From Bacillota bacterium (GTDB lineage: Bacteria > Bacillota > SHA-98 > UBA4971), in assembly GCA_035593725.1 (NCBI GenBank), contig DAOSZN010000003.1, positions 16,096 to 80,095 of the forward strand: DNA of 64,000 bases. Reading direction: 5' to 3'. This document shows positions 15,937 through 47,101 of this stretch, one piece after another. Both the position numbers and the translations under genes were made by a program. The notes beneath the pieces were generated by a model. The model made no database searches. It was given only the letters and a program-made list of their open reading frames with translations, and had not been told where the DNA came from. Positions within the stretch are counted from its first letter, which is position 1. Each line of letters begins with the position of its first letter.

Positions 15937-16172
15937 AATAACAAAGCCCTGGGCAATAGACCTCAGGGCTCTAATCTCTACAGTGTTCAAAGTGCGACAA
16001 GCGTTTCGCGTTAGCTTGCGACCTTCTCCCATCCGGACTGTACCGTCGGTGCCGGTTTTGCGCCGGCTCAACCGCATTCGCGGCTCGTGGACTTGCCTTT
16101 CGGCATTACCACCGGTCGGGAATTGGCTGGGAACTCCAGCCTCACCCTGCCCCGAAGATCTACATATTGGCT
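15937..16172 (-). ncRNA. FMN riboswitch (RFN element) with terminator-type expression platform
   Basis: The minus-strand RNA reads CUUCGGGGCAGGGUGA…UUCCCGACCGGUGGUA…GCCGACGGUACAGUCCGGAUGGGAGAAGG, matching the RFN consensus. It is followed by hairpin AGCCCUG-N12-CAGGGCU plus UUUGUUAUU at 15937-15971. Confidence 0.85.
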
Positions 16173-16287: not shown

Positions 16288-17358
16288 CTAATGAATAGAG
16301 ACTGTATCAACAAAGACAGTGCCTTCCGCGACTATCCTGACATCTCCGCTGACTGTGGCGTAAGGAGCGCAAGGTTCTCCCTTTGCATCAGGAGGCCTGA
16401 CAGTGACGGATAAGGTTCCGCCGGGCTGTTTAAAGTCATAACAGCCTGGTTTTCCCAAGGCGGTCGCATAAGCCAGCGCAACAGCGACACTGCCTGATGC
16501 GCAACTTGATTCCCAAACGAACGTATCAGTGGCTGCAACGTGTACCAGAGGAACTATCTCATCCGCTCCCCGGCGAAAGATCATCCCGATACACGCTTCA
16601 TCCGCAAGGCCGAAAGCCTCGCCCAGCCCTATAAGAACATTCTCTTCCATACGGTAGTCTCTTGCATCAACAACTATGTGTGTTATCCCTTCTAATCTGA
16701 CCACTGCTACAACAGGCGGCAGAATCTTCAGAGCAATCTCTCCGAGCCAAGACTCCAGGAGATCGCGAGGGTTAAGGCACGGTAAAACGCGAATGTTCCT
16801 GCCTGACCCGGATGAAGTCCATGAAAGAGTCTCCACAAAATAAAAATCAACCTCAGGCACTCCCGGGAAAGCGCATGATGCCCAAAAAGGCATCTCTTCG
16901 TCATCGAGCTTGGCTTGCACAAGGACAGGCTCTTCCACTCCGTGTATTTGGATAAGCCCCTCAAGTAGGTTATCGTTATCTTTCGGTACACCCCTACGCA
17001 CGTGGGGACATTCCATTCCAAGCGTCACCTTTTCACCTGACTTGCCCAGCGCCAAATGCCTTATTGACGCTAAATAAGCCCCAAGGGACCTTGCTGCGTT
17101 ACCGCAGAATTCACCGCCCATCATTCGCATGGAAGCTGCAATCGGTCCCCCTGCCATAAGTGTGACAAAACCCACCTGCTCTCCGCCGAGAACTGCAGGA
17201 TTCATCAGATTCGAGGCAACTTCTGCATGCATAGATTCAGGGACAGGATCCAGGACAAGTATTGTGGTATTACCTGCCGGGTTAAGTTTTGCAAACCTTA
17301 ACCTCATCTTAACCGCCTTCCCACGCGCATGACCCTGATAATCATGGGTAGTCTCCAT
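16288..17358 (-). CDS. DapF-fold (diaminopimelate-epimerase-like) PLP-independent racemase/epimerase family protein
   Basis: 356 aa. Two half-site Cys motifs, GGEFCGNAARS and ESSCASGS, resemble the catalytic cysteines of DapF/PhzF-fold enzymes. It lies immediately downstream of hutH. Confidence 0.45.
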   Translation of the reverse strand: METTHDYQGHARGKAVKMRLRFAKLNPAGNTTILVLDPVPESMHAEVASNLMNPAVLGGEQVGFVTLMAGGPIAASMRMMGGEFCGNAARSLGAYLASIRHLALGKSGEKVTLGMECPHVRRGVPKDNDNLLEGLIQIHGVEEPVLVQAKLDDEEMPFWASCAFPGVPEVDFYFVETLSWTSSGSGRNIRVLPCLNPRDLLESWLGEIALKILPPVVAVVRLEGITHIVVDARDYRMEENVLIGLGEAFGLADEACIGMIFRRGADEIVPLVHVAATDTFVWESSCASGSVAVALAYATALGKPGCYDFKQPGGTLSVTVRPPDAKGEPCAPYATVSGDVRIVAEGTVFVDTVSIH

Positions 17359-17469
17359 CTATACTATACGCTATACGAAAGGCGACGTCTTTCCATAATA
17401 AGATAGGATACACAAACCCCCTATGACAGACGGAGCCTTCGGAACGAGCCGAAAAGCCCGGCGTATCCC

Positions 17470-18984
17470 TCAGAGCACGGCCTCTTTGACTGCTTGCGCT
17501 ATTTGGCCTTTTATGACCAACTCCGTGATTGCTTCAATGTCAGGGTATAGCCAGCGATCACCGTCAAGGGGAGATATGACTTCCCTGACTATGTCGTAGA
17601 TCCTGCGAGTCTGAGGGGCTAGTTTCTCAGCCCCTTGAAAATCCACTGCCTGACAAGCACACATAAGTTCAATAGCGAGGACATGGGAAACGTTCTCCAC
17701 AACCTTCCCGGCCTTTCGAGCTGCAGTGGTCCCCATACTGACATGGTCTTCCTGGGATGCAGATACCGGAATAGAGTCTATGCTTGCAGGCGTGGCAAGG
17801 ATCTTATTCTCGGACACTAAGGATGCAGCAGTGTAGTGGGGGATCATGAAACCGCTGTTAATACCGCTGTGTCTTGCCAGAAAAGCCGGCAGTTGAGACA
17901 AAGTGGGATTCAGTAGCCGATCAATGCGTCTTTCAGATATGTTCCCAAGCTCGGCAACGGCAATTGCCAAGAAATCCATGGCGAACGCCACAGGCTGACC
18001 ATGGAAATTGCCTGCTGATATCACATTGCCGTCCGGGAAAACCAAGGGATTATCGCTGGCAGAGTTTATCTCTGTACCGATTACCTTTTCCACATACCCT
18101 ATGACATCCCTTGTAGCTCCATGAACTTGAGGTATACACCTGAGTGAATATGCATCCTGCACTCGTAGCTCGCCCGGAGCACTCACAAGCCGGCTACCCT
18201 GCAATAACTTCCCAATAAGCTCTGCGCATTCCATCTGGCCCGGGTGCGGTCTGGCTTGATGAAGACAAAGGCGAAAGGCGTCGGGAATCCCTCTGAGAGC
18301 TTCTATGGACAGACATGCGACAGCGTCAGCTGTTACTGCCATAATCATGGAGTCATACAGTGCAATAGCGCCCAGAGCGGTCATGGCTTGGGTACCATTT
18401 ATGAGGCCCAGCCCTTCTTTAGGTTTAAGCTCAAGGGGAACGATTCCGGCTCGCCGAAGAGCTTCAGCAGCATCCATCAACACACCGCCCATCCTGACCT
18501 TACCCTTACCTAGGAGGGCAAGGGCGAGGTGAGCAAGGGGTGCAAGATCCCCTGAAGCCCCGAGGGACCCCTGCTCCGGAATAATCGGACAAATATCATG
18601 ATTAACCAGAGCAACCAGGGTCTCTATCAGTTCGTACCTAACCCCGGATAAGCCTTTGGCGAGAGAATTGGCGCGGAGAAGAATCATAGCCCTTACAACT
18701 TCATCGGGCAAAGGGGCGCCTGTCCCTGATGCATGACTCATGATAAGGTTTTCCTGCAACTTGCAGAGCTCATCAGGAGAAATCCTGACGCAGGCAAGAT
18801 GGCCGAAGCCGGTGTTAACTCCATAGATTACTCTGTCCTGGGTTAAGACAGACTCTACGATTGCCCGGCTCTTGTCAACCTTATCCTTCACTGCCGTAGC
18901 AATCCCGACATGTTTATGATAGCGCGCAACCCCTACGACATCTTCATAGGTAAGAGTTTCGCCATTTATAAGTACTGTTGTCAC
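17470..18984 (-). CDS. hutH: Histidine ammonia-lyase
   Basis: 504 aa. Carries the MIO-forming ASG triad in GSLGASGDLAPLAHLA, and full-length similarity to HAL/PAL-family lyases. Confidence 0.9.
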   Translation of the reverse strand: MTTVLINGETLTYEDVVGVARYHKHVGIATAVKDKVDKSRAIVESVLTQDRVIYGVNTGFGHLACVRISPDELCKLQENLIMSHASGTGAPLPDEVVRAMILLRANSLAKGLSGVRYELIETLVALVNHDICPIIPEQGSLGASGDLAPLAHLALALLGKGKVRMGGVLMDAAEALRRAGIVPLELKPKEGLGLINGTQAMTALGAIALYDSMIMAVTADAVACLSIEALRGIPDAFRLCLHQARPHPGQMECAELIGKLLQGSRLVSAPGELRVQDAYSLRCIPQVHGATRDVIGYVEKVIGTEINSASDNPLVFPDGNVISAGNFHGQPVAFAMDFLAIAVAELGNISERRIDRLLNPTLSQLPAFLARHSGINSGFMIPHYTAASLVSENKILATPASIDSIPVSASQEDHVSMGTTAARKAGKVVENVSHVLAIELMCACQAVDFQGAEKLAPQTRRIYDIVREVISPLDGDRWLYPDIEAITELVIKGQIAQAVKEAVL

Positions 18985-33622: not shown

Positions 33623-33698
33623 TGGCGCGCCCGGAGGGATTTGAACCCCCGGCTTTCTGATCCGAAGTCAGACGCTCTATCCACTGAGCTACGGGCGC
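33623..33698 (-). tRNA. tRNA-Arg, anticodon TCG
   Basis: Minus-strand cloverleaf GCGCCCG-TA-GCTCAGTGGATAGAGC-G-TCTGA-CTTCGGA-TCAGA…GGGTTCAAATCCC…CGGGCGC-G-CCA. Confidence 0.9.
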
Positions 33699-34096
33699 GC
33701 TTCGTAACTTGATTCTACTTGGGCTTCAGCGTTTTGTCAATGCCGTAGAAGTCCTGTCTTGTTAGCTTGTGGTAATTTCATCCCATAGACAGTCCGAGAG
33801 AAGGTGTTTTATTACTGTTTGAAGAGGTTCTACTGTAAGCGTCACCCTTCACTCTAAACCTTGACTGCTTTGGCTCTGATTCTCACTGTAAGCCTTCTTA
33901 TTAGGTGTGGCCGATTTTCGGCCACAAATTTTTCTTGGCTGTATGGTTTTCTGCCACTTTTGGAGGGGCGACAGGTTCAGTGGTCGAGAATCAGCCAGCA
34001 GGAGGCTTATCAGTGACTGATTTCCAGACACGATTTCGCTTCAGGTGCCGGAATATCGAACATCTGATCGCCGGAAATAGGTTCGTTGGGGGATTG

Positions 34097-34180
34097 CTGA
34101 CAGAAAGTCAGGCACATTTTCCAAAAAGGTGACAGAAAGTCAGGCACATTTTCTAAAAAAGTGACAGAAAATCTTCCACC
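34097..34180 (+). repeat. Tandem repeat of about 32 nt, 2.3 copies, each containing palindrome TGAC-N5-GTCA
   Basis: TGACAGAAAGTCAGGCACATTTTCCAAAAAGG, then TGACAGAAAGTCAGGCACATTTTCTAAAAAAG, then TGACAGAAAATCTTCC…, read directly from the sequence. Confidence 0.8.
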
Positions 34181-34572
34181 TGAGCCTCAAGAAGGCACCA
34201 AAACCCTTCGTCTGCCCAAAAGTGTGGTCGAAAAGCAGACACCCTTGCAGTTGGAGGTGGTTGAAAACCTGCCACTTACCAGCTTTTTGCTGCGAAAATC
34301 AAAAACGATGGCTGAAATTAAGGCATGGCTGCAAAAAATGTGGTCGAGAATCGACCATCTCCTTCTTACTTACAGCGACAGCGGGAGTACGGCTTATCCC
34401 ATCTTCAATAGCGTAATCCTAGGCGGGGGTTATTTTACACTTCCGATAATTTCGCGTGAATGTTTTTGTGGTTCCGATTGAGGCTGTAGACACGGCTTTA
34501 CTGAAGGTGGGGGCTATTTTATTTGACGCTCACGTTCTATTGAATACACTAAGGGCGTAAAAGAAATGAAAA

Positions 34573-34667
34573 TGGCGGAGAGAGGGGGATTCGAACCCCC
34601 GCGCGGTTTGTTGCACCGCCTAAAGGTTTAGCAAACCTTCCCCTTCAGCCAGCTTGGGTATCTCTCC
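34573..34667 (-). tRNA. tRNA-Ser, anticodon GCT
   Basis: Acceptor GGAGAGA/TCTCTCC, anticodon stem AAGGT/ACCTT with loop TTGCTAA, a long variable arm, T-arm GGGGG-TTCGAAT-CCCCC, and CCA. Confidence 0.85.
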
Positions 34668-34825: not shown

Positions 34826-35742
34826 CTAAGTTTTCTTTTCCTTCTTCTTCGGTTCAGGGCTAACAACCCAAACAGCAAGCGCTGCAGGTATGGAAATAGC
34901 AGCATACAGCGAAAAAGATGCCGGCCAACTAAGAATTCCGCTGCCCGCCCCAAGAACAGGACTTAAAACCCTGCCCAACCCGCTAGACGCTTCAAGCATG
35001 CCTGTCGCTGAACCGGACTGAGGACTGACATAGCAGGATAAACCGTAGAACAAAATAACTAAGAACAGATGGCGGAGGAGGTGGGATTCGAACCCACGAG
35101 GGCCATGAAGACCCTGGCGATTTTCAAGACCGCTCCCTTCATCCGCTCGGGCACTCCTCCGCAGATCACCGGGTCTTAAAGGGGCTAAACAGAGCCGTTC
35201 AAGCTAAGTCCCAAGGAACCCGACAACGTAATTATAGCACCTGCCGATTCCACAGGCAAGTAGCCCGAAAATCCACTGAGCAATTGAGAGTAGCTGGAAG
35301 AAAACATGAAAAGCTGCTCTTGAGGATGAGATAGGGGTAGAGCTTGATGCAGGAGGAATGTTCCTATTGATAGGAACACGCTTGCAGTAATACCCACGCG
35401 TCCCCCGTATGTTTCAACCAAGAGCTGTGGTATGGTTTCACAGTTCGAATTATGTAAGGGTTTGGCCAGGATTAGCCCAAGGACAAGACATGCAATACCG
35501 CCGGCCAAAGTAAACCACCAAGCGGAAAATCCATACTTGAAAGCCAGTTGAGCTGTGCCAATGGTGGCTGCCCCTCCTACCAAAGTGCCGAGGATAGTCG
35601 CGGCTACTAACATAGGGCCGGCTTGTTTGCCACCTACTGAAAAATCACTTACAGACTTAATCTTCCGGCCTGAGCACACCCCTATTACAGAAATAATTGC
35701 AAGAGTCGCTGCCATGAAAACAATGTGTAACGGTGTAATCAT
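34826..35742 (-). pseudogene. Disrupted sodium:solute symporter (SSS family) gene split around a tRNA-Ser gene
   Basis: The 35185-35742 ORF encodes a typical SSS N-terminus (GRKIKSVSDFSVGGKQAGP…GTAQLAFKYGFSAWWFTLAGG) that degenerates after about 140 aa. The 34826-35053 ORF encodes a typical SSS C-terminus. About 220 aa of the middle are missing, and tRNA-Ser(TGA) sits in between. Confidence 0.5.
35070..35160 (-). tRNA. tRNA-Ser, anticodon TGA
   Basis: Acceptor GGAGGAG/CTCCTCC, anticodon stem GCGGT/ATCGC with loop CTTGAAA, a long variable arm, T-arm GTGGG-TTCGAAT-CCCAC, and CCA. Confidence 0.85.
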
Positions 35743-35964: not shown

Positions 35965-37284
<1,320 letters not shown>

Positions 37285-37299
37285 TCAGCACAAACATAT

Positions 37300-37600
37300 G
37301 ACAAAGCCCCTCGCCCCCTCAAACCGGGACGAGAGGCTTACCTCCCGCGTTGCCACCCCATTTGGTTTAAGATAGCCTGCGCTGTGCCCAGGCACGATAA
37401 ATCTCAAGACCCACTCTGGCGTACGCTAACGGGTACACCCGGCCAGGCTTACTCAGCATTATGCCTGCCTTTCAACCCGCAGCTCAAAGGGGGATTCAGC
37501 TTGGCTTGGCACCGGTTCTCACCGTACCCGGCTCTCTTTAGCGCTAAGACCATAGCTTACTCATCCTTATCATCGCAAATAGCTTCTCTTTTTAAGTTTG
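37300..37600 (-). ncRNA. T-box leader (tRNA-sensing riboswitch) controlling serS
   Basis: Minus-strand RNA has Stem-I features AGAGA…GAUGAUAAGGAUGAGUA…. A specifier region contains the Ser codons UCU and AGC. The T-box sequence is GGGGUGGCAACGCGGGAG. A terminator GCCUCUCGUCCC-GGUUUGA-GGGGGCGAGGGGC plus UUUGUC follows. Promoter TTGAGT-17-TATAAT is at 37606-37634. Confidence 0.75.
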
Positions 37601-47035: not shown

Positions 47036-47101
47036 CACAAAACATACGAGACAGTTTAGGGGACACAAAAAAGCTCCTTTTTGACACAAAGCAAAAATAA
47101 A

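Follow-up and report, generated by a model that had tools for sequence, protein, structure and literature searches.

A 64,000-nt stretch of a Bacillota bacterium genome (contig DAOSZN010000003.1), hereafter the window, contains a spacer of about 870 nt that is poor in open reading frames (ORFs) and lies at 33699-34572, between a tRNA-Arg and a tRNA-Ser gene. To the left of the spacer is a MacB-type efflux operon, and to its right a second tRNA-Ser gene followed by a T-box-controlled seryl-tRNA synthetase (SerRS) gene. The homologues of this SerRS are labelled Bacillota bacterium, the more distant ones Limnochordales, and the lineage occurs in digester and fermenter metagenomes. An earlier note on this DNA had described in the spacer a palindrome with two degenerate copies and, separately, a tandem repeat with a dyad of its own, and had read them as an iteron-like or multi-site operator array. 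We report that the spacer holds 12 helically phased units of one 19-bp dyad, and that the segment 33836-34449 is, by sequence comparison, a copy of a dispersed non-coding repeat, whose family is lineage-restricted and had not been described before.

The dyad, with the consensus GTGGTCGA-AAA-TCGACCAC, occurs 12 times within 33907-34358 and almost nowhere else in the 64 kb. Its skeleton, nTGnnnGA-A-nnCnnnCAn, has eight fixed positions. A weight matrix built from 8 copies recovered 12 units at 33907-34358, 4 of which had not been used in building it, and gave two weak matches only in the other 63.5 kb. The skeleton TGNNNGANANNCNNNCA matched the window 12 times (10 of them within 33908-34357) against 2.6 expected, and none of 100 shuffles reached 12; the consensus 19-mer, with up to 3 mismatches allowed, gave 2 matches against 0.03 expected. 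The array is far beyond chance, and the suspicion that the motifs might occur at random frequency is dispelled. The perfect 7-bp inverted repeat TGGTCGA-GAA-TCGACCA noted earlier is present, but about 5 nt further left (34341-34357, not 34346-34362), and the imperfect copies seen near 33983 and 34229 are found at 33981-33997 and 34225-34241. Tandem Repeats Finder located the 32-nt tandem repeat at 34098-34170 (2.3 copies, 95% matches), and its dyad, TGACAGAAAGTCA, is at 34098-34110 and 34130-34142. What had been taken for two separate motifs, however, are variants of the one 19-bp dyad, and the extent of the array had been under-called. The features are collected in Table 1.

Table 1. The repeat element, its dyad units and the bordering genes in the window.
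Feature	Sequence	Position	Strand	Remark
Full repeat element		33836-34449	+	Bounded by paralogous copies, 91-97% identical over this span; flanks unrelated
Core array, 12 phased 19-bp dyad units		33907-34358	+	First-to-last unit start distance 433 bp
Unit 1	GTGGCCGATTTTCGGCCAC	33907-33925	.	Perfect palindrome, 8-bp arms; weight matrix; terminator-like on + strand
Unit 2	GTGGCAGAAAACCATACAG	33939-33957	-	Weight matrix and skeleton
Unit 3	GTGGTCGAGAATCAGCCAG	33980-33998	+	Copy placed near 33983 in the earlier note
Unit 4	GTGACTGATTTCCAGACAC	34013-34031	+	Centre T-rich
Unit 5	GTGCCGGAATATCGAACAT	34045-34063	+	Degenerate in all subfamilies
Unit 6	CTGACAGAAAGTCAGGCAC	34097-34115	+	First copy of the 32-nt tandem repeat
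Unit 7	GTGACAGAAAGTCAGGCAC	34129-34147	+	Tandem Repeats Finder, weight matrix and skeleton
Unit 8	GTGACAGAAAATCTTCCAC	34161-34179	+	Form across the family: GTGGTAGAAAACCTTCCAC
Unit 9	GTGGTCGAAAAGCAGACAC	34224-34242	+	Copy placed near 34229 in the earlier note
Unit 10	GTGGTTGAAAACCTGCCAC	34257-34275	+	Weight matrix and skeleton
Unit 11	ATGGCTGAAATTAAGGCAT	34308-34326	+	Degenerate; kept degenerate across the family
Unit 12	GTGGTCGAGAATCGACCAT	34340-34358	+	Perfect palindrome of the earlier note
tRNA-Arg(tcg)		33623-33698	-	Left border of the spacer
tRNA-Ser(gct)		34573-34667	-	Right border of the spacer
Seryl-tRNA synthetase gene		35965-37284	-	

In the window the unit starts are spaced by 32, 41, 33, 32, 52, 32, 32, 63, 33, 51 and 32 bp. 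Spacings of 32/33, 41, 51/52 and 63 bp equal 3, 4, 5 and 6 helical turns of B-DNA, so that all units lie on one face of the duplex. The best-fit period was 10.56 bp, with a resultant length (R) of 0.95 that none of 5000 random 12-site arrays reached. Among about 50 arrays examined, every best period fell at 10.5-10.7 bp (R of 0.78-0.96), and the pooled spacings were quantised at 31-33 bp (345 cases), 40-41 bp (72), 50-52 bp (71), 62-65 bp (54), 84-86 bp and 93 bp.

The array is not a unique locus. A two-unit exact pattern was scanned through one genome per species (185,579 species) and matched 20 contigs of 3 Bacillota metagenome-assembled genomes (MAGs) only: 10 contigs of AS08sgBPME_304, 9 of UBA4981 and 1 of SBF912LR0HQ0073. 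Each match was a whole array of 7-14 units, and many lay at MAG contig ends. Two related uncultured Bacillota MAGs carry at least 9-10 copies each, and since the genomes are all uncultured MAGs these copy numbers are lower bounds. In metagenomes the pattern matched 33 contigs, 27 of them with genuine arrays; the matches at two of the numbered loci compared here (L050:4219-4908 and L069) were due to chance, the sequence being an unrelated 31-nt tandem repeat of 22.6 copies, GGTGGAAAAAGTGGCACTAGGAGAGGTTAGT.

Contigs of the same species carry the array at 98-100% identity; one of them has a 36-nt tandem duplication to the right of it (L003:11388-11423, approximately window 34377-34412). In a relative whose SerRS is 94% identical, a homologous array (354 nt at 73% identity, with equal unit offsets) is placed elsewhere, between a DUF441 gene and an MFS transporter gene; relatives at 92% and 87% SerRS identity have no array between these two genes. 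Copies 90-97% identical to 33836-34449 occupy five loci with unrelated flanks (the window, L051, L065, L066 (the same as L071) and L046), three of which come from a single metagenome, each on a long contig of its own. The window-type subfamily thus has several copies itself, and these set the limits of the window element. On the left, the window, L051 and L065 have the edge TAAGCGTCAC... in common, and the right edge lies at about 34387 in L051 and L065 and at about 34447 in L066, L071 and L046. The elements of the family measure about 450-650 bp. Their right edge is sharp, with homology ending just past unit 12 in most copies, and the position of the left one differs by up to about 230 nt among copies; unit 12 is the last unit in nearly all copies (it is absent in L015). 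A second subfamily (L052:273-1075, L060:2229-3030, L034:1-755 and L055:226-860) has up to 20 units of the type GTGGTCGAAAATAGTACAC, in which the right arm is degenerate; the quantised spacing is the same, with a higher-order period of about 138 nt (33+41+64).

Units 6 and 7 (34097-34147) end in ...GGCAC in the window and in ...GGCGC in sister strains (L001, L003 and L046). The latter form alters an otherwise invariant A18, which makes this pair of units the most derived of the window lineage.

A scan of 652 kb of related loci turned up no convincing unit standing alone outside an array. Hence the motif is no general operator, and the array is not part of the operator set of a regulon. None of the DnaA box, the Spo0A box, the CtsR site, RacA ram, matS and the Fis site fits the conserved skeleton. 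The sequence CGAACATCTGATCG (34057-34070), which spans unit 5 and the following spacer, has one mismatch to CGAAC-N4-GTTCG, which we take to be the Bacillota LexA (Cheo) box, and this match is confined to the window-type subfamily. A literature search by motif sequence returned only unrelated matches, apparently incidental sequence strings.

The plan of the array is conserved. Twenty-four copies of 68-97% identity, drawn from all subfamilies, could be aligned nearly without gaps over about 470 nt. Nearly all complete copies have 433-436 bp between the first and the last unit; in L015 the last unit is absent. Among 374 unit instances, T2, G3, G7, A8, A10, C13, C17 and A18 were nearly invariant, and positions 4-6 and 14-16 were free; the information content peaked at positions 2, 3, 7, 8, 10, 13, 17 and 18, and the unit flanks carried less than 0.5 bit. 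In divergent copies the 96 skeleton columns were 90-95% identical, compared with 49-72% for the other unit columns and 54-68% for the spacers. A measure of the neutral rate came from L065 and L054, an orthologous locus downstream of an alpha-amylase gene at which the array is kept in two lineages. Here the amylase shows 63% identity at its third codon positions, and the arrays, aligned with three columns of gaps, show 68%. This indicates that most of the element drifts at about the synonymous rate. Selection thus seems to hold the contact-like positions of the skeleton and their spacing, and the rest appears to drift. At the same locus each array is 85-95% identical to the paralogs of its own lineage and 68% identical to its ortholog, which points to homogenisation or replacement within lineages; the copies apparently turn over or become homogenised there.

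The element does not look like a gene or the remains of one. Every copy has at least 2 stops in each of the six frames and no clear 3-nt periodicity, and tblastx against the loci of relatives returned other arrays only, which disposes of the proposal that the region is a decayed coding gene. The question of whether the units act as RNA is less simple: their sequences are palindromes, and on the minus strand T-runs follow several of them. A multi-hairpin non-coding RNA (a protein sponge), or a stack of minus-strand terminators or insulators, could be built from such units. On the minus strand, unit 12 and its T-runs are terminator-like and lie about 215 nt downstream of tRNA-Ser. Several units of other copies also score as minus-strand terminators (a terminator scan of L033 gave 5 matches against 0.9 expected), and long copies bear at their left end an outward-facing promoter-like sequence, TTG(G/T)CA-N18-TACAAT. 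However, Watson-Crick pairing between the arms was as frequent as expected for independent columns, and no compensatory change was found on either strand. An arm-swap null gave 69.5 pairs versus 70.3 observed on the plus strand and 71.4 versus 72.0 on the minus strand, out of 96. In units 5, 6, 7 and 11 no more than 4-5.5 of the 8 possible pairs are retained. The consensus folds that RNAalifold predicted for the two strands of the 458 nt were weak, at -39 and -44 kcal/mol, of which the covariation term made up 1-2. With Rfam, only tRNAs were matched near the array at the gathering threshold, and 33699-34572 gave chance-level matches only at E values up to 10. Finally, spacing in steps of 10.5 bp has no meaning for an RNA. 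The arms evolve independently, and hairpin pairing is not under selection. We consider a function at the RNA level improbable, and since pairing is not selected we treat the terminator- and promoter-like signals as possible side effects.

Two further sets of signals lie near the arrays. The tRNA-Arg gene has a strong promoter of its own, TTGACA-17-TAGAAT (33740-33712, minus strand), outside the element; it was considered as the outward promoter of the element and ruled out, because the paralogs put the left edge at 33836. The motif GGGGG(C/T)TATT(T/G)TA occurs in the window at 34425-34437 and 34509-34521, and within about 100 nt of the array ends also in L020, L024, L031, L046, L065 and L066. 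In several loci it forms a ATAGCCCCC...GGGGGCTAT hairpin. Most probably it is just an ordinary terminator, but L066 and L046 have it on either side of the element; the GGGGGCTATTTTA motifs near the array ends, considered as att or duplication sites, are more likely the 3' halves of such terminators.

The arrays have no constant genomic partner. They adjoin genes for aminoacyl-tRNA synthetases, dehydrogenases, transporters, an amylase, SpoIIM and other unrelated housekeeping functions, in mixed orientation relative to these genes. An all-against-all BLAST of the flanking ORFs found no shared neighbour, and Pfam/NCBIfam scans of 33 distinct neighbours found unrelated housekeeping genes only. Of about 45 arrays, five or six have a tRNA gene at a distance of less than 500 nt, a preference that is at most mild. 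In UBA4981 (L037:1339-4652) the array is accompanied by a gene for an 813-aa HerA-like ATPase, both lying between an NfeD-like gene and tRNA-Ala(cgc); the window has 66 nt only at that place (47036-47101). Two ORFs of about 500 aa without a Pfam/NCBIfam match adjoin the arrays of L026 (3467-5017) and L034 (1585-3066), and the all-against-all comparison did not bring them up as homologues of one another.

This dispersal raises the question of whether the element is a selfish, non-autonomous mobile element like a MITE (a miniature transposable element with inverted repeats), whose units would be bound by a transposase or recombinase with its gene at another place and which would have no host function. 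The copies are indeed numerous, dispersed, intergenic and found in either orientation, and many lie at MAG contig ends. Presence varies among close relatives (L015 versus L009 and L011; L037 versus window 47036-47101), and the tight cluster of five window-lineage loci suggests a recent burst or homogenisation. Marks of transposition were, however, not found. No terminal inverted repeats were found apart from the units themselves, and no target-site duplication at the 5 window-type loci; left and right edges differ among loci, and when the filled and empty sites of L015 and L009/L011/L012 were compared the divergence was too great to place the edges. No second array occurs in 6-9 kb of flank at the longer loci, so that the arrays are not both ends of a larger transposon, and no unit was found at any insertion sequence end in the 652 kb. 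No transposase is associated with the arrays, apart from an IS200-like fragment beside one copy. Furthermore, dead MITEs decay, whereas old copies of 68-80% identity retain the 12 units, the skeleton and the spacing, and the array has been kept at the orthologous alpha-amylase locus. On this balance we regard a MITE-like origin as unlikely.

The transposase fragment bears on a related alternative, that the units are repetitive extragenic palindromic (REP) sequences, single-stranded-DNA hairpins arranged in bacterial interspersed mosaic elements (BIMEs) and mobilised by a REP-associated Y1 transposase. The regular palindromic units, partly alternating (units 1-4), and their dispersed intergenic clusters recall BIMEs (PMC2817692, PMC3333891). 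About 190 nt to the right of the L014 array starts an insertion of about 280 nt (17287-17563) with a truncated IS200-like Y1 transposase ORF of 80 aa. This fragment is missing in L015, the sister contig, and at all the other loci, and as a single truncated insertion it was dropped as a partner of the array. Since hairpin pairing is not selected, units never occur singly and copies number tens and not hundreds per genome, we regard a REP-type element as very unlikely.

In form, the iteron-like or multi-site operator array of the earlier note stands, as 12 phased dyad repeats; the plasmid or phage context that it suggested does not. About 12 direct repeats, each with a dyad, have the layout of F sopC or of iteron arrays, and tRNA genes such as those around the locus are common integration sites. 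Against an origin, iteron set or partition site of an integrated plasmid or phage are the at least 9-10 copies per genome, beside housekeeping genes, and the lack of any rep, par or integrase gene in the window flanks. Moreover, BLAST of a typical copy found no match in plasmid and phage collections, and the two-unit pattern had no match among viral contigs. We regard this origin as extremely improbable.

We favour, with moderate confidence, the reading that the element acts as double-stranded DNA and serves as a platform for the cooperative binding of a putative dimeric protein. Protein binding, the geometry of the dimer and cooperativity are what we infer from the repeat family, its phasing, the constraint on skeleton and spacing, and the absence of a coding or RNA-structure signal, which were observed. 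The invariant positions are arranged symmetrically around position 10, at the two edges of major grooves whose centres are about 10 bp from each other. Such symmetric major-groove positions with an A-rich centre are the usual geometry of operators for helix-turn-helix dimers. Each 19-bp unit would then bind a dimer of a putative sequence-specific protein with helix-turn-helix geometry, through two major-groove half-sites about 10 bp apart that flank the A-rich centre. The 12 in-phase dimers could assemble cooperatively into a higher-order complex, either with the DNA wrapped on or bridged by an oligomer, for which Lrp/AsnC clusters and plasmid centromeres would be models, or as a filament. Candidate roles of such a complex are chromosome organisation, local insulation or silencing, and the element's own propagation.

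Several observations weigh against this platform. No candidate binding-protein gene adjoins any copy; BLAST and the Pfam/NCBIfam scans agree here with the earlier note, which had seen none nearby. The skeleton was defined from the same data as its conservation test, which is therefore partly circular. The spacers too are fairly conserved within subfamilies, beyond the need of binding sites alone. A-tracts are denser here than anywhere else in the window, yet their phasing is not above background, and intrinsic curvature of that kind gives no support. The resemblance of several units and their T-runs to minus-strand intrinsic terminators makes an RNA-level side effect possible. Finally, all genomes are uncultured MAGs, and the orthology calls are based on short flanks.

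A more far-reaching version, which we put forward only as a speculation, is that a clade-specific system, of a chromatin or centromere-like kind, uses the arrays as fixed docking stations. At some 10-20 places on the chromosome, about 450 bp would be wrapped or bridged by a putative oligomeric DNA-binding protein, and the resulting positioned, nucleosome-like particles would give the chromosome organisation or insulation; selection would maintain the sites locus by locus, and gene conversion would homogenise them.

Dispersed repeats of bacteria tend to be interpreted as REP hairpins, as relics of transposons (MITEs) or as CRISPR. The signature of the present family differs: the dyads are locked to the helix, symmetric positions and spacing are selected and pairing is not, and the copies have diverged like synonymous sites. 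Such a signature fits a large, sequence-positioned protein-DNA assembly repeated around the chromosome. If this is true, the family would provide a sequence handle for a new nucleoid-organising or DNA-wrapping protein in a poorly known group of Bacillota that is abundant in anaerobic digesters. In practical terms, it accounts for the breaks of MAG contigs seen in this clade, and its annotation as an origin, an iteron or a CRISPR-like array should be avoided.

Other features of the window were recorded in passing. The T-box leader of the SerRS gene (37322-37582, minus strand) and an FMN riboswitch (16017-16163, minus strand) score above the Rfam gathering threshold. Between the two tRNA-Ser genes, a 57-aa ORF (34826-34999, minus strand) has a weak MFS_1 match. 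L015 has a full block of ABC-transporter gene, DUF441 gene, array and MFS gene between tRNA-Ser(tga) and tRNA-Ser(gct), and judged against this block the window segment 34826-34999 appears to be a deletion remnant.

Among known kinds of element, the BIME-type mosaics, the operator clusters of Lrp type and the centromeres of plasmids come closest, and the family appears to depart from each in a defining property. CRISPR arrays have repeats of 23-50 nt that alternate with unique spacers about as long, together with a leader and, as a rule, cas genes. Here the units are of 19 nt and the spacers of 13 nt (a 32-nt period), the spacers are conserved between copies, and no cas gene was found among the called and scanned flanking genes. 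The MITE-like repeats Correia, BOX, ERIC and RUP are dispersed non-coding repeats of 0.1-0.6 kb with lineage-specific subfamilies and strain-variable presence. The family shares their size, dispersal, subfamilies and variable presence, but has no defined terminal inverted repeat or target-site duplication that we could find, and it is a phased array under apparent site-specific purifying selection.

Plasmid centromeres and iterons are similar in having about 10-12 direct repeats, each with a dyad, on which a higher-order protein-DNA complex is built. F sopC consists of 12 x 43 bp with internal inverted repeats, and R1 parC and the P1 and RK2 iterons are likewise arrays. In contrast to these, the present family is chromosomal, occupies many loci, and has neither an adjacent par or rep gene nor similarity to plasmids or phages.

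BIME/REP clusters are dispersed, intergenic, non-coding sets of palindromic units, some of them alternating, that bind gyrase and IHF (PMC2817692, PMC3333891). The BIME-2/REP clusters of enterobacteria resemble the present arrays in their regularly spaced palindromes and intergenic dispersal. They differ from the family described here, which has a fixed 12-unit plan, integer-turn spacing, no lone units, no selection on arm pairing and tens of copies, and at whose loci no gene for a REP-associated tyrosine transposase (RAYT) was found.

The sites of the Lrp family are imperfect, AT-centred palindromes placed on one helical face at integral turns, to which dimers bind cooperatively with wrapping of the DNA (PMC2995911). 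The inner 13 bp of the unit, GTCGA-AAA-TCGAC, taken by themselves fit the form of the sites in Lrp/AsnC clusters (Ss-LrpB, FL11, E. coli pap and ilvIH), and both systems place several sites on one helical face at integral turns, here with a period of 10.5-10.7 bp. Lrp sites, however, are 13-17 bp long and come in groups of 3-6 at the promoter of a gene under their control, which is often that of the regulator itself, whereas the present units are of 19 bp, 12 per array, multi-copy and tied to no gene, and their outer TG/CA are the most conserved positions. No Lrp-family gene was linked to the arrays. We make no claim of membership in the Lrp family, and offer the comparison as an analogy of mechanism, in which dimers on one face of the helix would jointly wrap the DNA.

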